Assembly (NCBI GenBank): GCA_044892505.1
Contig: CM097882.1
Span: 520,056,001-520,120,000, forward strand
Source of the DNA: Schmidtea nova
Taxonomy: Eukaryota
Length of the DNA: 64,000 bases
Direction: 5' to 3'
The first letter of the stretch is position 1, and every line of letters begins with the position of its first letter. The translations under genes were made by a program, and so were the position numbers. The notes below the pieces were generated by a model. The model was not told the DNA's origin and made no database searches. It worked only from the letters and a program-made list of their open reading frames with translations. This document shows, one piece after another, positions 1 through 49,469 of this stretch.

Positions 1-1
1 A

Positions 2-202
2 CTTACACCAACTAAAAATAAGAACGATGAACCAATTATCGTGCATGGTAATATATGTAAATCTGCAGATGATGAATTACCATTAATAAAACCTCTCAGA
101 TACAATTTAAGATCACAACCACAAAATAAATTAATGATGTCAATAGTTATCCTTACTATATTCAATATAGCGAATGCAAATACAGTAAATAATAAAGATT
201 AA
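2..202 (+). pseudogene. Gypsy integrase C-terminus running in frame into a signal-peptide-like segment (element A)
   Basis: Frame 2 reads KNKNDEPIIVHGNICK...RYNLRSQPQNKLMMSIVILTIFNIANANT, TAA at 200-202. EPIxVHxNxCK matches EPIMVHANRCK in the integrase tail at 10765-10983. Confidence 0.65.
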
Positions 203-492
203 ATAACAAAACAGAATATGATAGCATAATAATCATTAACTTAAATAAAGATTCTAAAATTCAATTATATCTAAAATTTAATAATGGTTTGTAGTGACAT
301 AATTAATATGTAAATAAATATTACATTTATAATATTCATAAGATTTATAATATTTATATTTATATTAAATATATATTTTATTATTAAAAAAGAAAAAAAA
401 CTTTTGTTTGTATTATGTAAATATTTGAAAAAATAAACGACATCTTGATTTAGTTAATTTAGTTAATTTGTTAATTTAGTTAATCATTCTTT

Positions 493-1218
493 ATGTTTTC
501 CCTAAATGATTATAAAGTATTTTGTGAAGATAACAACCTTGACAATAAAGTGGAAAATTGCAATGATAATCGTGAATTAAATCCCGACAATATTAATAGA
601 GACATAAAATACGGCATTTTGCCAAGTCTTCTTCTAAATTTCGAATGTCATACTGAAATGCTAGTTAAAGTTGCGAGCTTTGATAAATTCGAACCAATAA
701 CTGAAGATAGCCTTCCAAGGGAAACTTGCTCAAAAATTATTGATTTGGAATTCATTTGCAAATATTTCTTATTTGAAGCAATAATTCATGCAATTGTTAC
801 AATAGCTGAAATGGATCTAATAAATGATGAACAGACTGATATGTTGAGCAGCCATGCTGAGTTTATCACCAATTATAACGAGAGGTGCGATAATTATAAC
901 AACAGCAGTAGTTCATGCTTAAGCACATATACCTTACTCAATGAGATCACACAAAGGGTACCTCCTTTGATATCCATTTGCAGTGATATTAAATATCAAA
1001 TCGGAAAACATCCAAAGATAATTTCCCAGCCTGCTGACCGCTATCAAACACGACGATTTAGAAAAACTCAATGTCCATCTGTTGGGCGAATAATATACTC
1101 CCTAACGATACACGGTCGGACTAACGAGGGAAGAATCGAGGCAAACAATATAATGATGGTAAAAGCCAATACCACATGGTTTATACACACAATTTATAGA
1201 AAAGGCAAGAAACATTAA
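493..1218 (+). CDS. Open 241-aa Cys-containing ORF of unknown function in the element A accessory region; possibly env-like ectodomain
   Basis: Intact ORF with several Cys and NxS/T sites, between the signal peptide (134-190) and TM fragment (1526-1579). No family recognised. Confidence 0.35.
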   Translation: MFSLNDYKVFCEDNNLDNKVENCNDNRELNPDNINRDIKYGILPSLLLNFECHTEMLVKVASFDKFEPITEDSLPRETCSKIIDLEFICKYFLFEAIIHAIVTIAEMDLINDEQTDMLSSHAEFITNYNERCDNYNNSSSSCLSTYTLLNEITQRVPPLISICSDIKYQIGKHPKIISQPADRYQTRRFRKTQCPSVGRIIYSLTIHGRTNEGRIEANNIMMVKANTTWFIHTIYRKGKKH

Positions 1219-1462
1219 AAATAATTATATAACTATATATATATATATAAATTTAAAACCACACACAGTCTTATTTATTTATCGAAACACCAATATCGGG
1301 ATTTAAGAAGACTCAATGTGAAATAGTAAAAGCAAAACCCATTAAACCTATAAATAAATTATTAACTCAAAATATACATAAAATAAAAAAACGAGGACCT
1401 TAAAAAAAGGCTCGAAAAATTAAATAGAATACCATTGAATAAACCCGCAATAACCATAAATT

Positions 1463-1681
1463 AACTGGGAAGAATTCCATAATCTTTATTATCCTCAACC
1501 AAAACCCTTTTATAAAAGATGGCCATTTTATACAATAATATTTAGCATAACACTACTAGTAATAACAATAACATGGATAAGCACTCAAACTTATAGAAAA
1601 TATAAATGGAAAAGACAGCGCTATCGGAGTCACCTTATCCAATATGTACCTGGAATATACACACTATCTACCCTTTGTTAA
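1463..1681 (+). pseudogene. C-terminus of a type I membrane (env-like) protein, element A
   Basis: NWEEFHNLYYPQPKPFYKRWP-FYTIIFSITLLVITITWI-STQTYRKYKWKRQRYR...LC*: hydrophobic helix plus basic tail; no ATG, so absent from the ORF track. Confidence 0.55.
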
Positions 1682-2234
1682 ATTAAACTGTCTAATCACA
1701 AAATGCACAAAATACTACCCAATCAAAAATCAAAAATCATGGGTTCCAATAAAATTTAATCAAAACTTAGTATTTATATGTCAGATAATTTATAAAATTC
1801 ACTCATATAGATATTATATCGCAAATAGGGGTAAGCCTTACATTTGCTTAATTTCTAATATCATATTTATTTATCATTTTAGATCAAGAATGAATTAACA
1901 ATCCAGAGCAATTATCCAACAATCCAATCCCATCACAAACAAACCAATACACACATATGACATACACATGCAGTACATACAAACATCCAGCAGCATTTTA
2001 CAAAGCATTAAAAAATAATATTCAAGCAGACTGAGAAGATATCACCATAAGAAAATACCCTAACCAAATATGCATCCCCAATGATTTCAAAGTAGACACA
2101 GAAGAAAGAGAAATTATTCTGGTTAAATTTAATGTAGTTAAAAGATTAAAATTAAGAGAAATTATTTGCTACCATGAATCAAGCCAGAATTTGGATAAAG
2201 ATACAAAAGAAGGTAAAAAATCCTACATAGAATA

Positions 2235-3083
2235 GTGATCCAGGCTCCGAGAACGAAGATTTCACTAAAATACGAAAACAAAACCTTAGTGACACTGAGC
2301 AAAAATACGGCAGCGTTTAAAACAATAAGAACAGACAGAAAAATGTTGAACAATTTCAATTATATAATGATCCAAATACACAATATACCTTGTGTAATTG
2401 CCATAGAAATATTATACATCCCAAAAATTAATAATCCCTTTCAAAAATCAGAAATAATCATTGCAGATATCAAGATGGACGAAAATTTCATAGAAAAGAA
2501 GACACCATTTAGAAAAAGATTCCTAACAACCAAGGAAAGAAGAGAAAAAATAGATTTAGTGTATGTTAAGACACTGAATGATTGTAATCGACAACCCAAA
2601 CCAATAGACATACACATCAGGCAACACAACGGTGATTGTGTATTTAAAACCAAAATTACTCCAAGAACCAAATTATAAATGGACAAAATAAACAAAGATA
2701 CGATTATAGGTAATATGGACGAATTCGAAGTTTTTTAAGAAATTAAAAAACACTTATACGGAAAAATAATTATCGGTTTCGACATTATGGAGAAACTAAG
2801 AAGTATCTTTATTAGTTTAGATGACGTATTAGGGGTAATAGAAATGGCAAATAACGAATATACAAAACCATTTGTGAAAAATGTCCCAGAAGATAAAATA
2901 AAATTATCAAATCTTGCCTTTCAAGTTATAAAACTCAGAAATGACTTAAAAATAAATAAGACATTAAATAATATTTTACTTCAAGCGGAACCATTCAATG
3001 TTCAAGACACATGCATGATAGTTAGAATCCTATATCTAATAACAGAGACAGATTGGGAAGATCACATTAACCAACAAATGTAA
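2235..3083 (+). pseudogene. Accessory ORF with REX4/ISG20-like exonuclease fold, element A
   Basis: ORFs 2235-2678 and 2787-3083 share a frame, split by two TAA. Motifs IHIRQHNGDCVFKTKITP, EIKKHLYGKIIIGFD and VQDTCMIVRILYLITETDWEDH. Confidence 0.6.
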
Positions 3084-3193
3084 AAGATACCAAATATCCT
3101 CATAGCCCCTATATAGAAACATATATCGAAATAAAAGAAGAGCTGGAAATCCAAAATAATGAAAATATAACAAGATGGGATTTTGACTTAGAT

Positions 3194-5813
<2,620 letters not shown>

Positions 5814-6049
5814 ACTTAGATAATGAGCAAATAAACGACATAGAACCGTATGAAAACAAATCAAGAGATAGAACAAAGAATAGTTGAACAAATTAATGAT
5901 GAAGAATTAGGACCCGAGCCCACTTTATCTCTAGAAAATACACAAGATGAAAATTACATAATTTTAACAATATGATGAAAACATTAAGAACACCACGATA
6001 ATTATGGATGAAGATGAATTAAACCTTTATTATGTAGAAAAAGGTTATA

Positions 6050-7942
6050 TTTGTGTATATACATTATATTTGTATATACATTATATTTGTGTATGGCTTC
6101 TTTATTAGTAAATACTCGGTTGTTAGTATTGTCTTGCCATCGTTCTCTGAGTTTGGTCTCTTTTTTAGTATTCCTTTTAATTTGTTTTCAATGTTCTCAC
6201 TGTTTTTAGTTGTTATTTGTTTGTTTATTTCTTCGTTGTTTTTTATGTTTGATTTCTCGTCGAAAGTTACTGGTGGGATAAGTTTGTCGGCTTTCTCTAG
6301 TAGTGTGTTTATTTCTGGGCCATGATTCAGAATTTGTTTTGATTTGTTGTTTGTTAGACCCATTTGGATAACACCAATGTCTATTTTTGAATTGGTTGTC
6401 GCCATGGTTTTGACGGTTTCTTTGTTTTTGCTTGTGTTTTCGGTTAGTGTTTTATTTCGGCAGTCTATTGTGAGGTTGTAGTGTGCCAGGAAGTCAGCTC
6501 CTATTATGGACTGTTGAACATCAGCGATTATGAATGTCCAGCTGTATTTCTTTAAATTAATTGTTAGAGTTAGGGTGTGTTCACCAAATGTTTTTATGCT
6601 TGTGCCCTTGGCTGCGGTTAAATGTTTTTTTGCGTTTTTTGATTGTTTTGTGCAGGTAATGGGGTAATAAAGAGATCACAGAACCTGTGTCAATTAGGAA
6701 TTCTGTGTTATTTGAGTGCACCATAAATGTATTGTTTTTGTCACCAAATGTGTGTGCGACTACTGGCAATGTTTCCAGTTTTTTTGTATTTGTTTCATCA
6801 AATGTAGGAGCAACTACTGGCAAACATTTCAATTTTTCTGTGTTCTTTTCGTTGTATATGCATGGTTTTGTGCAATTGAATGTTTTTTCTCCAAATTTGT
6901 TATGAAAGTAACAAAATTCTTGATTTGCTAGTCTGATTTCTGGTTTCCAGAATTTTTGTCTATATACCATTAATTTGTTTTTGTTGTTGTGAGTGTTTTG
7001 GTTTTGATTTCTTGTGTTTGGCTTTGGCCGGTTGAGCCTATACAATGTTTGATTTGGGTAGTAGTTTTGTTTTAAGTTTCTTTCTTTAATTTCCTTTAGT
7101 TCTGATTTGAACCTTTTATTTTCAGTTGCGATTTTGTCATGATGACTTATTAAATTATTAAGAATTTTATTTGTTTTGCTAAATTTAGTTCTTTCGTTTT
7201 CCTCCTCATCTTGTTCATGGTTGGGTATTCTATTTTTGATGTCCTGAGTACTCTTAATACTGGGGTAAGTTCCTGCATTTATTTTATGGGCCATGTCTGT
7301 CAGCATTTTGTTTTCAGTTTGATTACTTTTAGTAGTTGATGTTTGACATGATATTTGTTCGTTTGAGTCCAAGTTTGCTATTTTGGTTTGGACATACTCC
7401 AAATTTTGTTTTAGTGGTTTTGGGAAATTATTTTGGATATTATCCTTTTGTTTGCTATTTGTGAAAGATTCTTGTATATGCTTTTTATTTGTTTGATTTC
7501 TGTTTGCTAATAGGCTGCAGAGTTTTTCAAAAGGGTTGTTGTTTGTGAACATTTCGTCTATTTGATCGGAAATTTCGTTGCAGATATAACTTGGAATTCC
7601 TGTTAATATTTTCGAGCATATTAGCTTTGGTGAGGTTATATCGCTCAAAGTTAATGTCAATTTGGCTATTTTTAACCATGCGTGGATAGAGCCATTTTCA
7701 TTGGTAAAAAATTGGGATGGGGTTATTCATTATCTTTGTTTTTTATGCTCTTCAAATTCTTGTTTTCTTGTATATTTCTAGTTTTGTATTTTGTGAAAAA
7801 ATGAGCTTTTTTAAGGATATGGCTTACTGTGTTCAGCCAACAGAGACGCTATTATTTATACCTCTATACTAGGTATACTAAAAGAAATAGCGCTTGAAAA
7901 AAACGTAGCGTGTTCTGTTTAATGTTTTTTCTTCTGACACAA
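6050..7942 (-). mobile_element. Ty3/Gypsy 5' part: PBS, gag, aspartic protease; RT absent
   Basis: Gag with FCYFHNKFGEKTFNCTKPC, protease FLIDTGSVISLLP, frameshifted continuation SIIGADFLAHYNL; PBS-like TTGTGTCAGAAG on minus strand at 7931-7942. Confidence 0.85.
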
Positions 7943-8666
7943 ATTATCATGTTGGGATATAATGTTTTTATTAGTATTTATGTTAAGAATGCTGCCTTTT
8001 AGAAAACTGTAGAGCCCAGCAGAGTCTCCTATAAAAATAACTGTCTTGGGACAGCTGGGATAAATGTTGTGTATTTTGTGTGTGTGTGTTTGTGTATGTT
8101 TATTACGACAAATCAATAAAAGATTATAATAAAACAAAACAATATTTATAACCACAACTTGTATTTACTAAACAAATAAAGAATAACCGGTACTCACAGT
8201 GGATAATTAGTTATGGACTGGAAAAGTCATAAATCATAAATAGTCAATAAATCTTCTTTGGATAACTTCTTAGTTTCTTTTAATTTGATTCCTTTTCGGG
8301 TTTATCTTTTTTCCCTGGTTAAATTCTTATAATTTTTTAGTCCATTCCATTTTTCTCAATTTATTTAGATCAATTAACTATTTATATAGTTAATTGATTT
8401 TTTGTTTAATTAAAATTATTTTTGTTTTTAACTTTTTCTTGTAATTTTGATAATTAGTCATGCACCACGAACAGGGGGAGTTCTCCTGTGTCCGCAAGGA
8501 CGCCCTTATTAATAACCGCTACAACACGGATCACAATAATAATAATAATGACAATAACAATTAAAAATATACAACATTAACAAGGACATAACCTTAAAGC
8601 CCCAGGGAGTTATATTGGAAGATGGAAGGGTCGTAAGTGTAATAAAATTAAAATATCATACAATAG

Positions 8667-8807
8667 NNNNNNNNNNNNNNNNNNNNNNNNNNNNNNNNNN
8701 NNNNNNNNNNNNNNNNNNNNNNNNNNNNNNNNNNNNNNNNNNNNNNNNNNNNNNNNNNNNNNNNNNNNNNNNNNNNNNNNNNNNNNNNNNNNNNNNNNNN
8801 NNNNNNN
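8667..8807. other. Assembly gap
   Basis: N run. Confidence 1.
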
Positions 8808-9461
8808 CAAGCCAACAATGAAGGAACAATAATTGAAAAAACTTGATAATTTAATTTTATTTTTGAAGTGAATTAACTATGATTTTTATTTGATTTATTG
8901 ATTTTTATTTTGTTATATTTGGATGTATTTTTTATGGTCAACAGATATATTTTATTTTGGTGAGGAATATGAATAAACATTTAAAGTTATTATATCATCT
9001 AAAATAGCTGGGCATAATTGTTACTGTTTTGAATATATGTATATATATGTGTGTCTGTGGGTATATATATAAATAAATCGATGAATATTTCAAATTACCA
9101 TCAAAATTTTATTTAGTAAAAAACATTATTATTATCGTTATTATTATTGTTATTATAAAAATTACTATTGTTATTATTACCATTTTTTATGTTGTTGTTA
9201 TTTTAATATTATGATTTTATTGTCATTATTATTATTTAAAAAAAGAAAATTTCTTTAAAAGCACTTAGTGCTCGAATATTTACTTGCCAAATTTAGTGCC
9301 TTCGCCATATATATATATATATATATTTACATTTTAAATTTTTGTTATATATATACATTATTAAATTAAATATAGTTTATTTACAAATTGATTAATCGGT
9401 GTTATAATTTTGACAAAAAATGGCAAGCAAACAAATTCAAATGCAAAAAATGACAGTTTTA

Positions 9462-9653
9462 TTAAATAAAAAGCAGCAAGCAAACTCGAATGCAAAGACG
9501 ACAGTTTCATTAAATAAAAAGCAGCAAGCAAACTCGAATGCAAAGACGACAGTTTTATTAAATAAAAAGCAGCAAGCAAACTCAAATGCGAAGATCACAG
9601 ATTTATTAAATAAAAAGCATCAAGCAAACTCAAATTCTAAGATGACAGTTTAT
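9462..9653 (+). repeat. 48-bp tandem repeat, 4 units plus flanking partial units, probably in an LTR U3
   Basis: TTAAATAAAAAGCAGCAAGCAAACTCGAATGCAAAGACGACAGTTTCA at 9462, 9510, 9558, 9606; followed by TATATAAA, AATAAA, CTACA and a PBS. Confidence 0.9.
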
Positions 9654-9754
9654 ATAAATATGAAGAAGGAAGCAATTCAAAACTCAACGCGCCGATATTT
9701 TTATTATAATAAAAGTTCATTATTGATAGTAATTCATTTTAGAGTTACTACAAT

Positions 9755-9766
9755 TGGTGTCAGAAG
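9755..9766 (+). promoter_or_regulatory. LTR primer-binding site, tRNA-Leu type
   Basis: TGGTGTCAGAAG two nt after LTR-like end CTACA (9752). Confidence 0.75.
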
Positions 9767-10479
9767 AAGTGACAACTGTCAATATCACAAATCATCAACA
9801 ATTGCACAATTCACAGCTTCGTTGCCTCTCGGATCCGTTCCATATCCTCTTTTCCAGCAACAGTTATTAGCACAAACTAGCCTAGCGAATGTTCAGTACA
9901 TTCACTATCCTATTCTCAGTCCAATAGCTCACGGACATAATATGCTATCAGCCTCCACGTCAACTGCCGAAGTTATACACTTTTTCGAACAAGCTTCAGC
10001 GAAGCATGCTATACTAGAACGAATTTTTTATTATATTATCTTATATAAAATCTTATCTGTAATTATCATAAAATTTATTAATTTAATAATTTTATTTTAT
10101 TACAAATTTATCTATAAAAATTTTATATACACTCCATCTACCTCACTCTTATTCCCCATTTTAACTGCAACCATATTAAAAACATGAGCCAACCCACAAC
10201 AATTATTCTTTCCCCGCAGCTGCCTCCGTTACACCAACCTATATACTTATACGCTTCAACAAAATAATAAGCCAAATCGCTATTACCACTGACCTTTACA
10301 CCGACATTGCCACCTCTCTCCACATCGATAAAACTTCTTTTTACATGCTGTGTAACTGTTTCCAGCTTTCTTCAATCACCGAGGTACTACCGAATTCAAT
10401 CATAGACATCCATTGACGCATCCTAGGAGGTAAAGGTTCTGCAGAAGAACCATCTTCCTCATCCGGATTAGTGTTTATT

Positions 10480-10983
10480 TTGTATTTTATCTTTTATCCG
10501 TTTAAGACGAATACAGAACGGGGTACAGAAAACCAAAACCCCACAGTAATATGCTGTTCATGAGTGTACGAGACAAACGCCGTTTTATCTCATGTATTTA
10601 AGACACATTAAAATGGCTATCGACTTGTTGTTTTTCCCAAAAGCAACGCAGTATTTAGACCAAGAAGATTATCTCATGGAAATGATAGAGAGAATGCAAG
10701 AGGCATGGACTAAAGCAGGAAAGAGTCGAAAGATTATCATGATAAGAAAGCCAAAGAACATGGCATGTTAGTTGAAGACAAGGTGATGCTGGAAAGCCAT
10801 TATAATAAAAAGGGCTTATCACCAAAATTAATGAGAAACTTCAAAGGACTGTATGAGGTTTTGAGAACCACGGACACGAATTTGGTCTTGCAAATAGTAG
10901 CAAATAGAAAAGCTGAACCAATAATGGTACATGCTAACAGATGCAAGAAAGTTGCGATCACTGAGAAAGATCAGGTCAAATAA
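10480..10983 (+). pseudogene. Gypsy integrase C-terminal half, element B
   Basis: AVHECTRQTPFYLMY, EMIERMQEAW, GLSPKLMRNFKGLYEV (GPY/F-like), EPIMVHANRCKK; frameshifted. Confidence 0.85.
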
Positions 10984-11039
10984 AAGAAGGATAAAGGGTC
11001 AGAACTAGTCTCAAACCGATATCCGTTACGACAAGAGGC

Positions 11040-12116
11040 GTGCCAAAATCAGTTACATTTTTGGTAATAATAAGTTGTCTCATATCATCAGCAAAAACAT
11101 TTGTCCCAACAGCGGTGCAAATCCAAGATCTCGCATTCAGAAGATCTTTCCAGGAATTTCGGATAATATCATTAGCTGAAAATGATACCAAATTCAAGTT
11201 CTCGTTTTGCGAACGACGTTGTTTCCATTTTCCATTGGATTCAAACACAAGAGTGAAAGTCATAAAGAACTTATGAGCAGAAAAGGAATATCTATTAGAT
11301 ATACTTGTACAACATTTCATGTTTGGAAGATGGTCAGATTTTTCAAAATCCCAATGGAAGCTAAAAACAGCAGAATTCAAAAGGAAAGTTAGGATAAATA
11401 TCCAACCAGGTATGATTTCCTTCAGACAACCAAAACAGGGAGTGGATAGAGTAAAGATAGCAATTCATTCCGACAAAGAAATAGTACGAGAATTGTGGTT
11501 AAATGAAGACATTGAGAAGCAGAACCTCAAATGGAACAGTTCAGTAGAATGGAAAGCCCATATCACTTATATGATAATAAACAAAAAACCAGGAGTCGAT
11601 GAATGGAATGAAGTATTTTACGAAGTAATTCCTTTGAAATTACCCCTATTATCGACAACAACAAAATCGGTTACATCATTGATACGAAAAGAAAGTTACA
11701 TAATTCATCCTGCAATATGGCAGAGACTGAAAGGGTTGAAAATGGTAAAACCAGCAGTATCAACAGAAAGTTATATTAAGAGTTGTCAGTGTACAATTAA
11801 TAAAGTAAACCCCATTACTCACTTGGCAAAATTACCCGTTGGGGTATGGATTATTACATCAGCAGTATTGGCTATGATTACAACATTGATAGCAATGGGG
11901 ATTTGGATGAAATTATTCTTCAGCCAGGCTATCGAGTCGGTTGATGGTATTATGATGACAAGATTTATGACAATTACAGATAAATCACATATTTGTATTT
12001 ATATATATTTTAAAATATATAATATTGTTGAGCTCCGAGTAGCATTAACCTATAGCATAAGTAGATCTCGTAAACCGAGATTTGTGCATTTCTTTTTAGC
12101 CAATATTGGCATATAA
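11040..12116 (+). pseudogene. env-like type I membrane protein, element B, one internal TGA at 11274-11276
   Basis: ORFs 11040-11276 and 11319-12116 share a frame; signal peptide VTFLVIISCLISSA, sequons NDT and NSS, TM VGVWIITSAVLAMITTLIAMGIW; directly after integrase. Confidence 0.7.
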
Positions 12117-12155
12117 GTATATCTGATAATAACGTTAATTATTTTTCTTTTAGAT

Positions 12156-13532
12156 ATGAAGCATCAGGTATCACAGTACAAGCAGCGTTACAGCACTATC
12201 AACGTGCAGACAATACAAAAAGAAAAGCTTATTTATCAAAACACCGAGAAAGCTATAACCGCAGAATCACGGAAAGGTCTAGGTTATTGGTATTACGGGC
12301 ACTGCACCGGCATCCCTAAAATTTCAAGTTTCTTGGATCCCCCAAGAGACAAATGTGTTTTGTTACCAGCCTTGAGAATATCCGGTTGACAAAACACATG
12401 GCAGAATTAAATCGATCAACCTTTACCCATCATCTTTTGATCCACGCGATCAACAAACCATTTACAATCTTCATGGCAGGAGCCACAGGACCTATCCTAC
12501 TCCAACCAGAATCTACTTTAGAAATCGGAAACGGAGAGGGCAGAGAAAAGAACATATCTATCCAATGCGACGGCTACAACACCAGTGTAGTGCTGGAGAT
12601 TTTGGAACCCACCAAGGCAGTGCAATCATTGTGGAAAAATGAACCTGCCTGGGCCTATAATGTTAATGAGAACGATCTAAAATCGTTTAAATCCTTTGTA
12701 CGCATGAATTTGCATCCCAATCAAAAGGATAGATTATCCATATTTGTAGCGGTTCATTATGCTACCCTGCGAGACTATTTAAAGCCAGCCTTAGTGGCTG
12801 TTTCTATTACTAACTACGGGGGTGATTTAATATTAAACACTGTGGTTACCCCCAGGAATCAGTCAAACATTACCAATCGCACGCGCATGGTATGACAGAA
12901 AAATAAATCATTGGACAGTTTGACGGGTAGGATTGCGCTGACTGCATTAGGAAATTATGTGATGGGAAAATTCTAATCGGTCTCCAAGTCAACGAATTCT
13001 TGGAAGCAGACCAGTTACCCCCTCAGCGAGTTTTAGGCATTCGAGAGCTAGGAGCAGCAAAATGTCTGGAAGCGAGAGAACTGAAGAAATGCAACGGACA
13101 TTATCGACTCGCCTATCCGACTTGAAAACGACATGTACTATTTACCTCAAACTGAGAGAAGTTTGGATAGACGACATTACCCCAGGTAATCGTAGTGGGA
13201 CGATTACATCGGAAGTTAAGTTGGCTCGTGTGGTACAGAACCCCGAAGCAGGCAAAAGAAAAGCTATTGATAGCTTACCACAGGAACAGTCAACTTCAAC
13301 TAACCTACAAAAGATAGTTGAGGAAGAATTGCTATCCCCTCCAGCTATATCTTTAGCTGATGAAGATGATTACGCCACATGCGAGAGCAATGACGAGGAT
13401 CAGACCGACCTAAAATTAACTCTACACGGAGATAGGCGTACAATCACGAAGCTTACGCCAGAAAGCTCTTTAAAGAAGGAGAACAAGCTCGTAGAACTAG
13501 TAACCAAAACATTCCAAAAATTTACTTCATAG
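12156..13532 (+). pseudogene. Accessory ORF with REX4/ISG20-like exonuclease fold (about 12730-13170) and acidic tail, element B
   Basis: Across frameshifts: LVAVSITNYGGDLILNTVVTP, HGMTEK.IIGQFD, IRKLCDGKILIGLQV, LSDLKTTCTIYLKLREVW. Confidence 0.65.
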
Positions 13533-13663
13533 GAAAAATCATCCCCAAAGAAAAGTCAAGAACCTGTTGTAAGGTTACAAGACTTGATGATTAAAAAGAA
13601 AGTCCAGAGACTATCTCACCAGAAGATGGAGATTTAATAGAAATAGCATTCGTACCACCCGAT

Positions 13664-14041
13664 TTGGAACAGATCCATCAGATTAAAGACGAACGGAAGG
13701 TGATTTCGTTGGAACAGGGAATTCGGCAAAGATACCCCAGGATCTGGATAATGAGGATCCTAGTTTTTTGGCAACGACCAGGGAGAAATTGGGCACCTCG
13801 TATAAAGGAATACGATGGAAAACCTGTACACCAATCATCAATCTCGAACTTTCCGTATTATGGAGTTTTAGAAGCGAATGGAAAATCATACGTGATTTCT
13901 TCAATAGTATATAAGGAAGTAGAAACGCGCGAAACACTGGTGGTCAGTTATAGACCAGACATAGTGGAGGACCGCATCAAGAACGAACAAGCGAATATTC
14001 GCGAACGGGCAGCTCATAATATATTCGCGAAGGATAACTAG
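13664..14041 (+). CDS. Unknown terminal accessory ORF fragment, element B
   Basis: 125-aa open frame with the same composition as the upstream ORFs, before the PPT. Confidence 0.35.
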   Translation: MEQIHQIKDERKVISLEQGIRQRYPRIWIMRILVFWQRPGRNWAPRIKEYDGKPVHQSSISNFPYYGVLEANGKSYVISSIVYKEVETRETLVVSYRPDIVEDRIKNEQANIRERAAHNIFAKDN

Positions 14042-14345
14042 CATTTCTGCTACGTTCAATTCAATGTCTAGCAATAAGCTATGACGAATCTTCATCAAAC
14101 AATTAACATTTCGGCTAATTATGCAAATTTCTCAAGTTTACAGACAGTTACCATTTGATATTTATTGTGATCAACATTATATTATGACTTATGTGTTTTG
14201 TGACTTATTTTATTTTATTTTTATGATAATTGACCAGGTGCATTCAATGTATATATGCATTATTGTTATTTTATTTTATTGCTGCTAATCTTTCTTGTCT
14301 TTTCCGCTTTAATTTTAGGGACGAAAATCTTGTTAGGGGAAGACA

Positions 14346-15221
14346 TGTTAGGGTTCGAGATCATAGGATTTCGTTTATTATAGATAATTAATAAGTATAG
14401 TAATAAATAATTACCATAAATAAATATAGATTAAATATAGTAATAATTAAATAGTATAAATAAATATAGTAATTAACAATTACTATAAATAGATAGAGAA
14501 TTACAATAATAATAAATAAATAGGTAAAAAGTAATAATAGTAATAAATAATATATAAATAATAAATATAGTTTAAAAATAGTAATAGTAAATTACTATTA
14601 TTTATAATTTTAAAGGTCAAAATAGACCAATGCATAAATAATCGTGTCTGGTCGTCTAGACCTACACGTAGATAAATATCATATATAAACTGATTGCAAA
14701 ATCAGTTAGAGTAGTTGTTTTACTGGACAGAAGTTATTTAGATTTAAATTTTTGAGTAGCAAATTTTGTGAAACGGAATTAGTAATTTTGAGAAAATATT
14801 AGTGACAGGTCGTTAGAGTTATTTAAGAAATACAGCTACTTGGTAAATTTTAATTTTATTATATTTTTTGCGATCACGGAACAATAGTATTATTTACTAT
14901 TTTGTTCCTTCAGAAAAATCGAATAAACTAATAAAATATCAGAAGGGAAATTCATTAGGAAAAATTATTAACCAATTCTGGGTTATTACTATCGCGCAAA
15001 CTACCGGGAATCCTTCATCTTCTTGTCCAATATCTTAGTCGGAGCTGTGAGCCATTTAGGTCCAGCTTTCGTTTCTTTGAATCTGAGGACGGTTTGAACA
15101 ACCGATTATCTAGCTTTAGACATAGCAGCTATTGCACTATTATCAAAACACCTTTTTGTACATTGTATTGTATTAATAAAACTTATTTCACAAAACCTTG
15201 TTTTCTTATTTACACGCAACA
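14346..15221 (+). mobile_element. Probable 3' LTR of element B
   Basis: Preceded by GGGACGAAAATCTTGTTAGGGGAAGACA (PPT-like); starts TGTT; contains TATATAAA and AATAAA; plausible end GCAACA (uncertain). Confidence 0.6.
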
Positions 15222-31117: not shown

Positions 31118-31287
31118 TAATTTATATATTATTTTCATATTATTATTGTTTTAAATATTGTAAAGTTGCTTTCATAAACTTAATTGAAAGTCAAAATGGA
31201 AATATGAAATTCTCAGAAATAAAGGGGTCAAAGCAACAACAAATGTCAATCGATTTAGAGAAGAAATTGCTTGTTTACAATTGGTTT

Positions 31288-32688
31288 TGTAGTGCCTTAG
31301 ATTAAATTTTCAATCTTTTAAATTAATTAATTATTAAATGGATTAAATTAGATGTTGTTTTAATATTTACATATTTTCACTTTTTTCACGCTAATCAGAA
31401 AAAAAATGCAAGCTGTTAACAATGATTCGATATGCCAATTCACTCAAGATTCGACATACTCCACATCGACTTAGTAGGCAAACTCCCCGCAGACGACGGA
31501 TTCTGCTATATACTGACAATGATCGATAGGAAAACACGCTGGTTCGAGGCTATTCCAGTTTCTGACATCACCGCAAAAACGGTTGCACACACCTTAATAT
31601 CCACTTGGTTTTCGCGTTATGGAATCCCGACCGCCATAATCACAGACCAAGGAACACAATTTGAATCAGACCTTTTCGATCATCTGACCACCAGCCTCGG
31701 CATCAGTCATTTACGTACCAGCTCATATCACCCACAAACAAACGGTCTTGTGGAACGCGCCCACCGGACTTTGAAATCATCCCTCAGAATACTCTCAACG
31801 ACAACTTCGTGGACCAAAGCATTACCATTCGTCTTGCTCGGGTGGCACAACACTCCCAACCGCTCAAGTGGCGTGTCACCTTCACAACCTTTGTTCAGTT
31901 CCAACACATCCATGCCCAACGAACTCATAGATCTACAGAACGAATCGTCACGAGAGGAAATCAACCTCACTCGCAATCATTTTTTGAGTCTTGATACAAA
32001 TCCATCTTTCACATATTCTACATCATACAAACCGTATATACCACAATCACTTTCATCTGCCACCCACGCATGGATGAAGACAATTGACTCGTCAAACCTC
32101 AAACCTAGAAACAAAGGCCCATTCCGCATCATCTAACTATACAAAAACACAGCGAAACTAGAAATTGATAACAATCACATTATGGTCAACCTATCAAGAT
32201 TAAAACCATCCTTTTGCACACTTGAGTATGATGAACGACCAAATTACCATATCATGAAAGAAGATCCTATAGATGAAGGCATTCAAGAAGACACAGAACA
32301 ACTGAAGACCCTTACAGAAACGACAAATACCCAACTTTCTCAAGACAACCCGCCATTCTCTTCTAGGCGAACACGTAAACTCCCTCAATATCTCTCCGAT
32401 TATCACCTTCAGTGACTCACCCAACACCCAAATCCATTTTCTAGCTTAGAGACGCTCCATGTACTTCGGCGGGGGCTATTGTAGTGTCTTAGATTAAATT
32501 TTCAATCTTTTAAATTAATTAATTATTAAATGGATTAAATTAGATGTTGTTTTAATATTTACATATTTTCACTTTTTTCACGCTGATCAAAAAAAAATGC
32601 AAGCTGTTAACAATGATTCGATATGCCAATTCACTCAAGACATTCACAGCGACTCGTTTTCTTCAAATGACAACAATTATCAGTTCTA
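31288..32688 (+). mobile_element. Internally deleted Gypsy: partial LTR, integrase, PPT, LTR
   Basis: About 161-bp near-identical direct repeat starting TGTAGTG at 31288 and 32480; GGGGG PPT before the second copy; 3' end uncertain. Confidence 0.88.
31432..32136 (+). CDS. Integrase core ORF started from an LTR ATG
   Basis: HIDLVG / ITDQGTQFES / YHPQTNGLVERAHRTLK: D-D-E intact; first 6 codons are LTR sequence. Confidence 0.8.
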   Translation: MPIHSRFDILHIDLVGKLPADDGFCYILTMIDRKTRWFEAIPVSDITAKTVAHTLISTWFSRYGIPTAIITDQGTQFESDLFDHLTTSLGISHLRTSSYHPQTNGLVERAHRTLKSSLRILSTTTSWTKALPFVLLGWHNTPNRSSGVSPSQPLFSSNTSMPNELIDLQNESSREEINLTRNHFLSLDTNPSFTYSTSYKPYIPQSLSSATHAWMKTIDSSNLKPRNKGPFRII

Positions 32689-32689
32689 C

Positions 32690-33080
32690 TCTAGTGGAGA
32701 TTGTGTAGTCGATATTCAAAGAAGAAACAATTGCCAGTTCCGTAGATTGCAGAAATGTTTCGCTGCTGGAATGCGTAAAGAAGCCGTACAAACTGGAAGA
32801 TGCTTGTCAACAACTGGATCAATATTAATATACTATCCAGACAAATCTGAAATGTATAACTCAAAAAATCTACAAACCAATACATTGGATCACAATCAAT
32901 CTCGATTAAACGATTATTCGCCAGCACCAGAAATCAATCAATACGGACTGTCATGGAGCTTGCTCATTTCTACTCTTGTTATCATCGGTCAGGATTTCCC
33001 GTTGCCAAAGACCAACTTGTCAATTGGAGATCAATTTCTATTAATAAAATCTTATTTGCTTTTAGCATTCCTACAGGTTT
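32690..33080 (+). pseudogene. NR2-type nuclear receptor fragment (HNF4/COUP-TF-like): second zinc finger, hinge, start of LBD
   Basis: GDCVVDIQRRNNCQFRRLQKCFAAGMRKEAVQTGR; LBD signature-like FP...LSIGDQFLLIK; a Zn-ligand Cys reads CGT (Arg); first finger absent. Confidence 0.8.
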
Positions 33081-33770
33081 ATTTTCTGATGCTAATTCTT
33101 GTTAAATTTCCAGAAATTTAGTAATGTTGCCTAAAATTTGTTTAAAGTATAATTGAAATTTGAAGCTTAGTTTGAAATTGTACGAAGATTATTTTTGTAT
33201 TATGAATTAAAATTTAATTGTATTGTTATTGTTATAAAATCCTAGTATTTTGCATTGATTATTTTGTATTACCCAAAAACATGAACAACCAAAGAAAAAT
33301 TTAATCATCGACAGGCTTTTTTCTAAACTAAAATTTTTAAAGTTTAGTTGAATAATTTGACAAAAATTGTTTGAAATGAAGTCTAGAAAGGTAAATTATG
33401 GATTAAATTAAAGACTTGGAAGTTATATTTTGTGTTGATTTGATAAATAATAGTTAATTAGTACGAATATATAGTGATAATATTGCATCAATTATCAGAG
33501 ACTTAAGGGAGAATCTTTTTATGTTTATTGAGTAACCTAAGCAATGTGTGTTTTGATTACAAAAGAAATACAATGTTTTACTTGATAAAAGATCTATTTC
33601 GAATACAGGTCTTCATTTTTAAAAAAAAATTTACTTTTTTTGAAAAGCCAAGAATACAAGCCCTCCCTCAAATATATTCCATTTTCACTTTAAATTCAAA
33701 TATTTCAATTCAAATTCATTGAAACAATCTGAGCAATAGCATCTATATTTTTCTACACTTTATACCACTA

Positions 33771-34924: not shown

Positions 34925-35358
34925 AATAATTCTCATAATGATGATTATAGATCATAAAAATATTTTTATAAACAATAACACAATATTTCGGCACAGCCTT
35001 TATCACTTGATAATGGAATATAATAATGATCTATAGTCATCATTATGAGACTTATTGATAATAATAATAAAAAAAGATCAAAGGTGAAAAAAGATAATTA
35101 TGATAATAACAATAATAAACATAATAATAATAATAATAATAATATCATAATTATCTTTTTTTTCACCTTTGATCTTTTTTTATTATTATTATCAATAATT
35201 CTCATAATGACTATAGATCAAAATTTTTATTATAAACAATAACACAATATTTCGGCACAGCCTTTATCATAAAGGCTTTATGATAAAGGCTGTGCCGAAA
35301 TATTGTGTTATTGTTTATAAAAAAAAATTTTGATCTATTGTCATTATGAGAATTATTG

Positions 35359-35420
<62 letters not shown>

Positions 35421-35432
35421 TATTATTATTAT
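34925..35432. repeat. Array of alternately inverted PLE pLTR-derived units with truncated hammerhead cores, ending in (AAT)n(TTA)n
   Basis: Unit TCTCATAATGACTATAGATC...ACACAATATTTCGGCACAGCCTTTATCA in both orientations; palindrome centres near 35125 and 35275. Confidence 0.85.
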
Positions 35433-38400
35433 TAGCAGCAACGATATCAAAATCATTTTCGGTATCCATTAAATAAATAAAATCAACTACAAAATTTATT
35501 AAATTTGAAAACTACGCTCTTTTCTCCTAATATATAAACAAAAACTTGAAGGCTATTCTTCTTTAATTCTGATGTTGATTTAAATGCTGGCTAATTTTTA
35601 AATAAGAAATAACATATATTTTAAGGTTAATTTAATTAATTAATTTAAGATGTTTAAATAAAAATTTATGAAATCTGACAAATACAATTTAAATGTTTAT
35701 TAGCAATTTTAATTTAAACGTGAATTCTACCCTTTCATCCCCCTTCTTTAAATTCTTTAATTTTTTCAATATTCCTGATTAAAGACTTTCCACATTTATC
35801 TCTCAGCATATAACTACGATCGTGTATTCGTCTTGTTACCGTGTATGGTCCTTCATACCTATCTTGATCCTTGTTTCGAATTTTTCGTTTGATTAACACT
35901 TTGTCTCCAACTTCAAACTTCCTTGTAGTTGTTGTTTCGTCATTTAGTCTTTTACTTTCAATTTTCAATGCTATTTCTTTTCTGTTGATTTTACTATCAC
36001 TATACCATTTCGATCTATCAATTCTCCTACCAAAAACAATTTCAGCTGGACTTACTCCCGTTGTTTTTTGGATTGTCGCGTTGAGTGTATATTCTGTATC
36101 TGGAATAAGAACTGCCCAGTCTTTTGCATTTCCGTCTTTCAGCGATGCATTAATAAAATCTCTTATTGTCCGGAATTGTCTTTCGATTATACCATTCGTA
36201 TTATGATGATATGGACTCGAATACACTATTTCGATCCCTGCTTTCTTGCTTATATTCTTTATGCTATTCGCTTCGAATGTTTTCCCGCAATCTACATGTA
36301 GTTCCTTGGGTGCCCTAAATTTTAGAATACAATTGTTTAACAATATCTTCCCAATTGTCTCTTCATCCTGTTTATTTATTGCTGTTAGCGAAATGTATTT
36401 ACTGTAATGGTCGATTATTGCGCAAATGTATCTTTTCCTGTTAAATGTTTCTTTCATTGGGCCACAGATGTCCATATATATTTTCTCGAAAGATTCTGAT
36501 GCTTCAAGTACTTTTGATTTCTCTTTCATCTTTGTAGTTACAACTTTAACTTTTTGGCACGATTCGCAGTTTGATATTGCTGTTTTTACCTCATTTATTA
36601 AATCTCTCATATCAAAATTGTTTTGTATGTATTTGATAACTTTATCAACTCCGGCATGACATAATAATAAATGTGTTTTCTTAATCATTTCTCTTCTTTT
36701 ACTTTCTGGTATCCATATTCTTTTTTCTTTGTTGTATATAATGTTATCTTCTATTATAAACCTTTTACTTGGTTGAGTTCTTATTTTATTTTTAATGTCC
36801 TCTATTTCTTCACTATTTCTTTGCCATTCTTCTCCTTTCCCTTCAGTCATTATACTTAACAATCTGGTTTTCATTCTTCCCATTTTAGGATTATCGTGAT
36901 CCATAAGGCATTGCACACATGGGCCACACGTTTTCCTCGATAACATGTCTGAGTTAGCATGTAATGTACCTTTTCTAAATTCCATTTTTATATCAAGGCT
37001 GCTTAAATAGTTTATCCACGTCTGGAATTGAGCTGTAATTTGCTTCTTTGTTGTTAGCATAAACGTTATCGCCTTATGATCTGTACGTAGTGTGAATCTT
37101 TTTCCATATAAATAGTGGTTGAAATGTCGACAAAAATAGTATATAGCCAAAAGTTCTTTTCTTGTAATACAATAACCCCTTTCATGGTCATTCATCGCAT
37201 ATGATCCATATGCGATAACTTGCTCATATCCCATGTCATCCTTATGTGATAAGACTGCGCCAATCGTATCAAAACTTGCGTCCGTATCCAATATGATTTC
37301 TTTCTTAAAATCCGGAAATACCAAGATCGGTGCGGTTATCAATGCCAACTTCATATTCTCAAAAGCCTGCTCACAATTTTCATTCCATATTATTTTGTCG
37401 CTATTTTTACCACATATACTCTCTAAAGCTCTTGACTTCTTTGCGTAGTCTTTAATAAACCTTCGATAATAGTTGCAGATGCCCAAGAAACTTCTTAAAT
37501 TTTTCACACATTTTGGCCTTTGGAATGATTGAATAGCTTCAATTTTGATTTGATCAGTTTGAATGCCGCCTTTATTTATAATATGGCCTAAGAATTTCAC
37601 TTCACTTTTCAGTATTTGACATTTTTCTGGGTTAATTCTTAGTTTAGCATCCGCAATTTTCTGCAATACTCTTTCCAGCAGTTTATAGTGTTCTTCCATT
37701 GTATTCGTAAAAATTAATATATCGACCAAATAAACCATTACTCCATCTTTCCATAAATCCTTTAATATCTTCGTCATGAGCTCTTGAAAAGTGCCTGGTG
37801 CTGCTGCGATGCCAAATGGCATTCGATTAAAACAGAATTGTCCCTCTTTCGTTGAAAAAGCTGTTTTCTCCTGTGATTCTCTATCCAATTTTACATGATA
37901 GTATGCGTTTCCAAGGTCAATGGAACTAAAATATCTAGTTCCATGCAAAGCATCTAAGATCTCGTCGACATTTGGCATCGGGAACCCTTGCCTTTCAGTA
38001 ATTTTGTTAAGTTGTCTAAAATCCAAACAAAGTCTGATATCCTTCTTTTCTTTTTTCCAAACGCACACTAACGGGGTGTTCTAAGGTGAATTACACTTCC
38101 TTATAATATTATTATCCTCCAGATTTTTAATGGCCATGTTTATTTTCTCTTCCAAGTTTATAGGCTGCCTTCTTGGCATTATCATTATTGGTCCACCAGT
38201 TGTTTCAATTTTATGCTCAAATAAATCAGTGCATCCAATATCCCACTTGTCAGCCATGAAAACATTTATTTCTCTTGATAATTTCTAAAAGAAATTTATC
38301 TTCTTTTACTTTCAACTTCTCTATTGTATATTGGAATCTTTCTTCATTTGTAATATTCCTCCCAAATTTAGCATCAATTTCACATATACGTTCGTTAAAT

Positions 38401-40424
38401 ATTATTTCATCCTCTTGAATCCATCTTAATTCAATACCGAATTGTTTCTGTAATTCTACACCTCCAATAACATCTGGGACAATGTTCACTAGGACAAAGG
38501 TCACTGGGACAAAGGTCACTATTTTTGTTAGTTTCCCTATCTTTACATCAATTTGAATTTTACCGATAGTCTCCAATTTACTATCATTTGCACACCTTAG
38601 CATTTCATCTGTTTTTATTATCTCGACTTTGTCCAGTTTATCCAGTACCGCTTTAGACATAATATTAATTCGTGCTCCTGTATCTAACAGACACTCAATT
38701 CCGCGGCCCTGAATTTCAAGTGTTATACTTGGTCTACCTTGAATTTTATGATAATTCATACGAGGTCTTCTCCATTCGTCTTTTGTAAATATATTTTGTT
38801 CTACTTTATTCTTTATACTATCGGAAATTTCAATAATCCACATAATCTTATCTTCATTCATATCAAATGTCTTTTTTAGGAATCTATATACTTTTTCACC
38901 AGTTCTTTCATCGCTACACGTTATTTTTCTGTTTTCATTTTTCTGATCTGTACTGCCACTTTTATAAACATTAAAATTAGTTTTATTATCAATATTATTA
39001 CATAAATCTTTACTAACAAAATTAAAATTATTTACATTATTTAAATTATTTACATTATTATAACCAGCATTTTCATCGAAATCAAAATTACCTAATAAAT
39101 GGCTCCGATCATCGCCTCCTGTGATGGAGCTTCCTCGTTTGGGTATTGCATTTCTTCGTATTTCTCTTCGGCTTCACTTGAATAATTTACTTGATAGTTT
39201 GCATCTTGATTTCCAATTGCTGCTACCTTTCTTCTATTATACTGATTGTTTTGTTGAAATCGGTCCCTTTTATTTTGATATGCTGCATTGTTCCTTCCAT
39301 GTTGGCTCATTTTCGGCGTAAATCTTTCTAGGTTTGTATAGCATTCAGTTTCTTTGTGACCTCGTAGATGACATCTCCTACACTGGATGTTTGGACATTC
39401 TCGGTGTACGTGTCCATATAATCCACATCCAAAACACTGAATCTTCCTCTCTATAGTGCATTCCCGGCTTATATGGCCTGGTTTCTGGCATGTCCAGCAT
39501 ACGACGTTTTTAGTCACTTCCAATGGTTTTGACATCGGAATCACATTTGTCTGTGCAGGTCTTTGAACGGCATCTCTGTAGCTTTTGACAGAATTCGGAT
39601 ATGCTATAAGTCGAATGGTGTTAACATGGCTTATAGCTTTATTCACTTTCTAAACTTTTCTAATTGTGCTTTTAATTTCTTCTGACGTCTTTAGTTCTTG
39701 CATTTCTATTTCTTTTTTAACTTTTTTCTCTCGAGTTCCATTCATAAGCAGGCATTTTTAAATTTCTTCTTGGTTTCACTCATGTCTAAATAACCTTTTG
39801 GTTAATTTCTCCACTTTTTCGATGAATCGGTCTGCTAAATCGGATCCTTGTTCATAATTAAGAGCTTCCTTTAAGTCGTCAAATAATGATTTTGGTCTCG
39901 AAAATGCTGTTCTGAGCTTTTCCTCGAATGTTTTTCCTTCTACTTTTTCATATTCGTCATATAATGGTTTATCCAACAGTGTGGTAACCAGAATCATCTG
40001 CATTTTGACAGATATCTTCGTAATATTAAAAAACTTTTGACATTCTTTGATGAATTCTTCCAAGTCATCGTCTCTGTGGAATCTTTCTGGTAACATCCTG
40101 CTAATCAATAGGTTCGTTGGCGTGGTCGCCATATTAGCAGCAACGATATCAAAATCATTTTCGGTATCCATTAAATAAATAAAATCAACTACAAAATTTA
40201 TTAAATTTGAAAACTACACTCTTTTCTCCTAATATATAAACAAAAACTTGAAGGCTATTCTTCTTTAATTCTGATGTTGATTTAAATGCTGGCTAATTTT
40301 TAAATAAGAAATAACATATATTTTAAGGTTAATTTAATTAATTAATTTAAGATGTTTAAATAAAAATTTATGAAATCTGACAAATACAATTTAAATGTTT
40401 ATTAGCAATTTTAATTTAAACATG
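35430..40424 (-). mobile_element. Near full-length Ty3/Gypsy LTR retrotransposon, young but disabled
   Basis: LTRs 35430-35737 and 40132-40424 (runs into gap) nearly identical; PBS TGGCGACCACGCC; gag with three CCHC knuckles; protease LLDTGA; RT-RNaseH-IN ORF 35735-38068. Confidence 0.97.
35735..38068 (-). pseudogene. pol (RT, RNase H, integrase)
   Basis: CLDFRQLN, MPFGIAAAPGTFQ, YLVD in place of YxDD, LDTDAS, MDICG / VDCG / IIERQF; upstream TAG in CNSP*NTPLV. Confidence 0.93.
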
Positions 40425-46454: not shown

Positions 46455-46860
46455 GCTTTTTATTTTTATCAATAATTCTCATAATGATGACTATAGATCA
46501 AAATTTTTTTATAAACAATAACACAATATTTCGGCACAGCCTTTATCAAGTGTGTATTTCAATCGTTATATTAACTTAATCCTAAATAGTAGCCTTAATT
46601 ATTTTTTTAATATTTTATAATGATTTTATTGGATGAAAAAGATTTATTTTAATTGGATGAAAAAAAATTTATTTTAATTTTTTTGTGCGAATTGAATGTT
46701 GATGGACGGTTTGTATTTTTTTATGTAAAAAGTCTCGGAAGCTAATCTTTGTAATGAATTTCTGAATCCCTCTTGTAGAATCTGGCATTTTGTTTCTTCT
46801 ATAGATGGAGTTGTTTTATGTACTTGGTAAATAAATTTGGTAAATAAATACTTATAAACC
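46455..46860 (-). mobile_element. PLE 3' end: GIY-YIG C-terminus plus pLTR-like tail
   Basis: QILQEGFRNSLQRLASETFYIKKYKPSINIQ; homologous to 49480-50020 and, inverted, 50230-50530. Confidence 0.8.
46521..46553 (-). ncRNA. Minimal type I hammerhead ribozyme, U3-A8 variant
   Basis: ACAC-UUGAUAA-A-GGC-UGU-GCC-GAAA-UAUU-GUGU: stem I 4 bp, stem II 3 bp, palindromic stem III, AUU site. Confidence 0.75.
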
Positions 46861-47032
46861 ATATTAAGTATTTATTTTGTTAACCAGTATTTATTAAAGG
46901 CAGCACAAATCAAATTTTACTAATATTAGGTGGTACCCAAAATTAAATTCTGTGTTATATCGTAAACCAACTATACTTAAAGTGGGTTTACGAACCAACA
47001 CAAAATTTAATTTTGGGCACCAAACAATATTA

Positions 47033-48307
47033 TTAGGTTGTCCGGAATGAAATGTCCGAATAATATATAATAATTGCAAATCATCATAACTTTTTTATAA
47101 AAATCGTATTTCTTTATTTTAAAGTTTATTAGAAAGCGCTTATTTCAAATTCAAATATTAAATAAGATTTATAATAACTTAATTGCCATAAATTCCAAAA
47201 GAAATGTACAAGTTAGAAAATCATGATTTGAGACTTCTTCATTTATATGAGCGGAAATTGAAGAACAATTCATTTGAGGCGGAGAGAAATATTAATAATG
47301 CTTTTGGGAGCGATACAGTTAATGAACGAACTATTAGGTGTTGGTTTAAAAAATTTGATGACGGAGAACTTGATCTAGAAAATATGCCTCACGGTAGACA
47401 CAATAACAAGCTATCGGAGGAAGATTTACGAGAAGCTGTTGCTCAAAATTCAACAAGATCTGGAGAACTTGCTATAAATCTGTCTGTCTAAAAATCAACC
47501 GTTCATGACAATTTAAAGACAATTGGTATGGTCAAAAAGCTTCAAAAATGGGTCCCACATGAATTGACTGAATTGCAGAAATTTAACAGATTGCAAACTT
47601 GTCTATCTTTTCAAGTACGACATCGAAAGTCATCTTTTCTTAATACTAGAATTACCTGCGACGGTAAATGTATTCAATACGATAATTGTAAATGATCAGG
47701 AGAATAGTTGGATAAACATCAATGTCCAACACAGTTTCCAAAACCGGAACCTCACCAAAAGAAGCCATGCTTCCAGTCTGGTGGTCGAAGTCTGATGTAA
47801 TACATTATTGTTTTCTGAAAATGACTACAACAATTAATTCTGAACGATACTGTGTAGAACTAGAAAAAATGCATGAAAAACTCATCATTAGTCACCCTGC
47901 TATTGTTAATAGAGAAAGGTCCATTTATTCTGCATGATAACGCCAGGCCTCACGTATCGACAGTCACTGTAAAAACATTACACGACTTAGAATTTTAAGT
48001 TTTACCGCATTCACCTTACTCACCCGATCTATCACCAATTGATTTCCACTTATTTAGACATTTAAGTCTTTATATCAAGGGCAGAAAGTTTAAAGATCTG
48101 GAGGAGATAAAATCGACAATTATCATTTTCTTGGACTTCAGACATGAGACGTTTTTTAAAGAAGGTATAGAAAAGCTCCAACAACGATGGCAAGAGTGTG
48201 TTAATGTTGATGGATTATATTTTGATTAAATAATAAATGTTTAAATATGTTTGTACGTCTTTAGAATTATAATTCATTTAGCGGAAATTTCATTCCGGAC
48301 AACCTAA
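47033..48307 (+). mobile_element. mariner (D,D34D), full length, inactivated
   Basis: TIR TTAGGTTGTCCGGAATGAAAT, TA TSD; WVPHEL, ITCDG, LHDNARPH, YSPDLSPIDF; stops and frameshifts. Confidence 0.96.
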
Positions 48308-49254: not shown

Positions 49255-49463
49255 CCCCTTCGCTGCGACCATATAGAAATGCTGTGTGCGACAGGATAAT
49301 TTGGTAATGCAATTTTGTTAAAACAAAGCATTTTATATAATAAAACTTACAGGGTTCCAAAGACTGTACAAATAAATACACAACATGACGAGACATACTC
49401 GTCAGTCTGACATGGGAATACTTTTTCATGACGAAACCATACTCGTCCTCCGCAGTGAAGGGA
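49255..49463. mobile_element. piggyBac-type MITE
   Basis: TTAA TSD; ends CCCCTTCGCTGCG / CGCAGTGAAGGGA; two CATGACGA..TACTCGTC subterminal palindromes; inserted in a pLTR unit. Confidence 0.88.
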
Positions 49464-49469
49464 TTAAAT

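Follow-up and report, generated by a model that had tools for sequence, protein, structure and literature searches.

The window, by which we mean the whole stretch of 64,000 nucleotides that was analysed, is AT-rich and carries transposon remains throughout, including a C4 zinc finger and fragments of Ty3/gypsy and hAT type, a content that points to an animal host. One region of it is best explained as what is left, after decay, of the 3′ end of an env-bearing Ty3/gypsy element of gag-env-pol type, and the accessory open reading frame (ORF) in this region combines two predicted enzyme folds. The features are as follows, with the evidence for each in brackets; L001 is a locus with an unbroken element of this kind, and P0001, P0002 and P0008 are relatives of the accessory protein.

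1,881 to 3,092, + strand: accessory ORF, second copy, distant and decayed (tblastn E 9e-11 to P0001; 65.6 bits on the family profile)
10,553 to 10,953, + strand: C-terminal remnant of a Ty3/gypsy integrase, frameshifted (tblastn of the L001 polyprotein)
10,995 to 12,116, + strand: extension behind the integrase that has a signal-like and a putative transmembrane segment (hydropathy; same position and same signal-to-transmembrane layout in L001)
12,138 to 12,153, + strand: candidate splice acceptor, 2 nt before the accessory ATG (12 of 14 positions are pyrimidines)
12,156 to 12,610, + strand: accessory ORF, domain 1, predicted 2OG/Fe(II) oxygenase (AlkB-like) fold (pieces scoring 22 and 146 bits on the profile; models of relatives; site table)
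12,731 to 13,175, + strand: accessory ORF, domain 2, predicted REX4/ISG20-type DEDDh fold without the canonical active site (profile, models, site table)
13,116 to 13,125, + strand: site of a deletion of about 58 nt in which the general-base His column is lost (junctions seen in other copies' contigs; 19 residues missing relative to P0002)
13,176 to 14,041, + strand: accessory ORF tail, acidic and poorly conserved, with a stop at 13,530 (profile pieces of 5.1 and 4.5 bits)
14,334 to 14,352, + strand: purine-rich tract followed by TG, probably the polypurine tract with the beginning of the 3′ long terminal repeat (LTR) (read from the sequence)

Among the integrase matches of the window, the remnant at 10,553–10,953 is the closest in identity to L001 (64% across 56 aa and 44% across 75 aa, with E 1e-26). 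The window element is cut off 5′ of this remnant and contains no reverse transcriptase (RT). In L001, P0008 lies directly behind an unbroken gag-env-PR-RT-RH-IN frame of 3,184 aa, and it is the one of eight relatives whose genomic context was seen. This frame comprises, in order, zinc knuckles, a stretch resembling UBX, a fusion protein of the Monjiviricetes/gB type (E 1e-90), protease, RT, an RNase H and an integrase, and it ends behind the integrase with a signal-like and then a transmembrane segment of no known family. The corresponding extension of the window, which has one internal stop near 11,274, gave no alignment with that of L001 and shares no sequence similarity with it. Since the integrase tail matches and the layout is the same, we take the window stretch to be the 3′ remnant of a related element; the order of gag, gB-type env and PR-RT-RH-IN is present in L001, and only the accessory ORF and the tail of the integrase tie the window copy to it. 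A partner for the presumed LTR was found neither in the 64-kb window nor in L001, which ends 157 nt past the ORF. The second copy of the accessory ORF likewise forms the 3′ end of another element, with an acceptor-like site of its own at 1,881. We dropped the idea that 10,995–12,116 is the env gene, as the fusion protein of L001 lies between gag and pol.

Several further observations concern these elements. Positions 1–3,300 of the window repeat this order at the 3′ end of the other element: a pol-like frame whose end carries an R-Y-N-L-R motif and a signal-like stretch, an unassigned ORF (484–1,218), the acceptor-like site and the second accessory ORF. The UBX/ubiquitin-like match between gag and env in L001 (within 380–9,934) is weak (E 0.006), and just before the start of the polyprotein L001 carries a stretch at 362–379 that looks like a primer-binding site and presumably resembles the complement of the 3′ end of tRNA-Trp. 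Errantiviruses with a GAG-ENV-POL order and a gB-type env occur in flatworms, nematodes and bryozoans, according to the searched parts of Chary and Hayashi (2026, PMC13524379). With its single gag-env-pol frame and its gB/Monjiviricetes-type env, L001 is like these viruses, and its env resembles by eye the Schmidtea row in the supplement of that report. Planarian Burro elements carry other accessory domains, and the UBX-like domain of L001 recalls the ubiquitin-like motif described for them in the parts of PMC6431247 that were searched. Neither in those parts nor in the searched parts of PMC13524379 (term searches, including its seven supplements) is an accessory ORF resembling an exonuclease or AlkB named.

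The remainder of the window contains other mobile DNA. A young-looking, env-less Ty3/gypsy element on the minus strand (35,430–40,424) is bounded by 293-nt direct repeats that are 99% alike and encodes gag knuckles, protease and RT-RH-IN within a frame of 781 aa. Two ORFs at 31,287–33,121, one for an integrase core and one for a C4 zinc finger (Pfam zf-C4, E 3e-7), open with the same duplicated stretch of about 160 nt, 1,192 nt apart. A hAT-type transposase ORF of 617 aa lies on the minus strand at 3,409–5,262, a 48-nt tandem array with one open frame at 9,398–9,685, and MITE-like short repeats, inverted and dispersed, that form one family at 34,945–35,374 and 46,457–50,751.

When the translated stretch 12,320–12,892 was searched with phmmer against 1.84 billion representative proteins, eight relatives were recovered (241–609 aa, 25–37% identical, E 1e-24 to 8e-4). 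All are unnamed singletons, and no Pfam family was found for any of them. P0008, the weakest, is a true member of the family, scoring 127 bits on a profile built without P0006–P0008, with a best score of 5.0 among 200 shuffles. A word-index search with the profile recovered only two of the eight known members, so its blanks carry little weight; with P0008 it returned that protein itself only, and with a piece of the window it returned none among longer proteins. No related loci were found in viral contigs, and none for P0002 in metagenome contigs. An atlas search gave RNase_T clusters at 0.78–0.81, to be read as a lead only, and nothing usable with the N-terminal domain.

The original prediction had proposed, for the second of the two domains, an exonuclease fold of the REX4/ISG20 family that keeps the scaffold and has lost the DEDDh active site. 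The scaffold is borne out by the eight relatives, which confirm a DnaQ-like fold: the family profile matches ISG20L2 with E 3.3e-11, ISG20 with 0.012 and SDN1 with 0.17, and P0002 alone matches ISG20L2 at 5e-7 and ISG20 at 2e-5. The AlphaFold2 model of P0002 (10 sequences, mean pLDDT 57, with a disordered tail below 50) superimposes on ISG20 with Z 12.6 and an rmsd of 2.9 over 149 aligned residues, and the offset between the two at both ends equals that of the sequence register. P0008 gave Z 9.0 against ISG20 and a Foldseek E-value of 7e-5, the two models having mean pLDDT values of 57–58 and alignment rows in common and thus not being fully independent. Overall, exonucleases of the ISG20L2/ISG20/REXO4 type are the best matches in sequence (E 3e-11) and structure (Z 12.6 and 12.1). 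The argument for a decoy that had been drawn from the antiviral role of ISG20 is weak, as the best matches reflect which structures are solved; the host appears to be an invertebrate, for which we would presume a REXO4-like donor to be likelier. ISG20 clusters with REXO1/3/4 and PAN2 in the part of PMC3985635 consulted.

The window copy itself is heavily broken. The motifs quoted in support of the exonuclease fold are all present at the expected place and are spread over three frames, the breaks having gone unmentioned: FVAVHYAT and VSITNYGGDLILNTVVTP share one frame that runs to 12,862, HGMTE and GKILIG lie in a second (12,850–13,113, with stops at 12,904 and 12,928), and SDLKTTCTIYLKLREVW, the ExoIII helix, lies in a third from about 13,113. 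Frame changes thus occur near 12,861 and 13,116 in domain 2, and domain 1 has one near 12,316–12,319. On the family profile, the piece 12,850–13,113, which lies outside the query that recovered the relatives, reaches 79 bits, compared with at most 5.9 for 600 shuffled frames. For the ExoIII piece the score is only 5.1 bits, and its placement rests on colinearity; the two tail pieces (5.1 and 4.5 bits) do not exceed the best shuffled frame (5.9), and the tail ends near 13,844–13,951 in a small, beta-rich, conserved-looking segment. No single piece of the window reached the cut-off of a Pfam family, and the pieces alone gave no exonuclease match among PDB sequences. As the copy is decayed, it alone cannot separate an old catalytic loss from recent decay.

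Other copies of the stretch form a many-copy family in four public runs of one study (465–923 contigs per run). The breaks near 12,319 and 12,861 are absent from most of the contig depth in all four runs, and the stop at 13,530 is specific to the window rather than common to the contigs of other copies. At 13,116–13,125, three of the four runs each have one contig that reads 68 letters against 10 in the window, and this deletion costs 19 codons relative to P0002, the column of the general-base His among them. Hence, the missing His is an artefact of the window copy: the residue is not evident there, as had been stated, and its loss cannot be judged from a deleted column.

In the register of ISG20 and ISG20L2, the window has Ala (12,749) in place of the Asp and His (12,755) in place of the Glu of the ExoI DxE motif, and Phe (12,997) at the ExoII Asp, in agreement with what had been read from the DNA. 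Among the copies, the ExoI differences at 12,748, 12,751, 12,753 and 12,767 are those found in the 40 listed of 1,632 substitutions, and the majority third base of the codon 12,749–12,751 (592/692, 95/107, 90/90 and 627/651 in the four runs) excludes Asp. The relatives extend this loss. The ExoI Asp is present in none of the eight (A, S, V or G instead) and the ExoI Glu in two, so that no relative restores DxE; the ExoII Asp is likewise absent from all eight (F, I or T), three of which have an acidic residue one position before this column. Two proteins end earlier, which leaves six for the last two positions: the general-base His occurs in none (L five times, Y once), and ExoIII carries Asp in one and Glu in another. 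The ExoIII Asp, kept in the window at 13,119 as predicted, is therefore not a trait of the family. Each relative keeps at most two of the five DEDDh residues. ISG20 D11, E13 and D94 are visible in the alignment with P0002, H149 and D154 of ISG20 are taken by us to mark the His and ExoIII Asp positions, and the pairwise P0002 alignment shifts the ExoIII Asp column by one. We therefore consider it highly probable that the canonical DEDDh site was lost family-wide, which supports the pseudonuclease originally proposed. Since the site is absent across the eight relatives, its loss predates the decay of the window copy.

This bears directly on the view that an active exonuclease decayed after insertion, or that the gene is functionless cargo. 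The heavy decay of the window copy would suit it, as would a family sample that is small and derived from one single-sequence search, and substitutions that are known from 40 of 1,632 rows. Six relatives, however, have open frames of 485–609 aa without the site, one of them inside an unbroken element, and the gene persists at 20–37% identity across lineages. Decay or cargo is thus largely refuted and very improbable as an account of the family.

The exonuclease domain noted earlier turned out to be the second half of a fusion, in which an AlkB-like fold comes first. In the P0002 model, residues 1–156 resemble 2OG/Fe(II) oxygenases: ALKBH5 (Z 11.5), ALKBH6 (11.2), ALKBH7 (11.1; Foldseek E 5e-4), E. 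coli AlkB (11.0) and prolyl hydroxylases (10.6–11.0), and the P0008 model gave ALKBH6 (11.2), ALKBH7 (10.5) and prolyl hydroxylases (10.2). The double-stranded beta-helix core and the N-terminal subdomain are both found (Z 11.2–11.5 over about 140 residues in two models). Since ALKBH5/6/7 (Z 11.1–11.5) and the prolyl hydroxylases (10.6–11.0) are tied within one Z unit, a nucleic-acid ancestry does not follow from the fold, and hhalign gave no sequence-level match to E. coli AlkB. The register of this domain relies on strand order, a match of G-E-G-R to G-E-S-R and an end offset that stays constant across the rows of E. coli AlkB, and is less certain than that of the nuclease. Placed by this register, the site columns His131, His187, Arg204 and Arg210 would be kept in none of the eight relatives and Asp133 in five, so the oxygenase site, too, is probably dead. 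A His of the third strand (H100) is kept in seven of eight and is unexplained.

Could new residues have taken over? A D-E pair (261–262 in P0002) is invariant in all eight relatives, as is the Asp of GIRD/GYID (D302); R133 and E151 are further invariant residues and unexplained. D261-E262 and D302 in the exonuclease fold, and D83 and H100 in the oxygenase fold (the Asp and His kept in five and seven of eight), could form a re-wired working site, and rearranged sites do occur in the RNase H-like superfamily, as the part of PMC3985635 consulted describes. The D-E pair, however, aligns with the start of the A-T-P-F helix of ISG20L2, a place that suits a helix cap, which it may be. Moreover, four DEDDh columns are mostly small or hydrophobic and vary freely, unlike a constrained pocket. 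We thus regard a re-wired enzyme as unlikely.

A pyrimidine-rich AG stands 2 nt (window), 13 nt (L001) and 7 nt (second element) ahead of the accessory ATG. With the observed value set as the threshold, 2 of 281, 3 of 677 and 2 of 168 AG sites, respectively, are as strong, the background for 12 or more pyrimidines being 34 of 2,969. P0001–P0004 start with Met at the same place as the window ORF. The acceptor-like sites and this shared start make a spliced subgenomic RNA the likely source, from which the accessory gene is probably translated. L001 at the same time offers a second route: at 9,932–10,030 a UGA-CGG stop, behind which the ORF continues in frame, precedes by 8 nt a 14-bp stem with a loop of about 50 nt (z −2.2; stem score reached by 0 of 300 shuffles), an arrangement that we take to resemble a type II read-through signal. 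Both expression routes may therefore exist.

Read-through would make the ORF an extension of the polyprotein and its folds structural modules of a membrane-linked particle component. Besides the L001 signal, this would fit the window ORF being in frame with the transmembrane extension, the stop at 12,114 that separates them being absent in contigs of other copies. It sits poorly with an acceptor and ATG in all three elements and with the Met shared by P0001–P0004 and the window, and a pyrimidine tract would by itself encode a hydrophobic stretch such as the one ahead of the ATG. A particle component therefore appears quite unlikely to us.

The last gene of the element would then encode an accessory protein of about 500–600 aa, with an AlkB-like fold, a REX4/ISG20-like fold and a disordered tail. 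Its exonuclease site was gone long before the window copy decayed, as eight relatives show, and its oxygenase site, judged by the register, probably was too. As our main reading, to which we give a probability of roughly 0.45, we propose by analogy that this protein is a non-catalytic factor that binds RNA of the element itself. Single-stranded nucleotides, perhaps methylated, could be held by the vacated oxygenase pocket with its lid, and RNA ends could be capped or clamped by the vacated exonuclease cleft; unspliced genomic RNA might in this way be shielded from host decay or passed on for export and packaging. The exonuclease domain is net positive in all eight relatives (+1 to +8), which counts mildly for RNA binding; NLS-like motifs are enriched in one of six tails only. 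Functional analogies exist for both parts of this reading. Maelstrom and EXD1 are inactive DEDD proteins that keep RNA binding, as described in the parts of PMC5408684 and PMC7968707 consulted, but are host silencing factors. CERV of Cer1 exports genomic RNA and has a spliced RNA as its source, according to the consulted part of PMC10309623.

The loss of both sites with retention of both folds would equally fit mimicry. The dead folds could pass for host enzymes and engage the partners or substrates of these (e.g. those of REXO4 or the AlkB family), and would blunt host RNA surveillance without binding element RNA. Foldseek matches to poxvirus C4/C10-like proteins (E 9e-4) and to vaccinia C16 (E 3e-4), whose oxygenase fold we understand to be catalytically dead, point in this direction. 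C16 binds and inhibits PHD2, as stated in the parts of PMC8546648 and PMC4298679 consulted. The C16 match, however, reflects a common fold only, and the relatives are merely 16–75% identical per domain. We hence consider a protein decoy rather unlikely.

Enzymes of both types have been described in LTR retrotransposons. Rotifer Juno and Vesta elements carry a DEDDy exonuclease as ORF3 (Rodriguez et al. 2017, PMC5408684), and, as far as the consulted part of that report goes, they share with the present element an extra ORF behind the pol of a Ty3/gypsy element and a DnaQ-like 3′-5′ exonuclease fold. Their enzyme is RNase D-like with its invariant residues intact, whereas the domain described here is REX4/ISG20-like of the DEDDh type, has lost these residues and is fused to an oxygenase fold. 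Compared with ISG20L2, ISG20 and REXO4, the catalytic D, E, D, H and D are lost and an invariant D-E motif is new. Phalaenopsis Ty3/gypsy elements carry an AlkB (2-ODD) ORF (Alvarado-Marchena et al. 2022, PMC9289625) and are thus likewise gypsy elements with an additional ORF of AlkB-like fold. That ORF was found by CDD profiles and encodes an active m6A demethylase, according to the part of the report consulted, in contrast to the domain described here, which has no detectable sequence similarity to AlkB, appears to have lost its His ligands and forms a fusion with a nuclease fold. In the open-access literature searched, no report of a fused or inactive version, or of an AlkB-like and exonuclease-like pseudoenzyme fusion in a retroelement, was found.

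It is possible, albeit doubtful, that an old env-bearing gypsy lineage captured, fused and disabled two host RNA enzymes to obtain a spliced antagonist of host RNA surveillance. If this were true, the protein would be a reader of modified bases and a shield of 3′ ends, with a role like that of the Rev-like or anti-silencing accessory proteins of complex retroviruses. Reports of extra enzymes in LTR retrotransposons concern single enzymes with intact catalysis; two pseudoenzymes in one conserved fusion, unseen by Pfam, would show that such elements can capture host RNA enzymes and keep only their binding surfaces. Its targets would indicate which host RNA-surveillance steps restrict these elements, and if the hosts are flatworms, RNAi knock-down would be practical.
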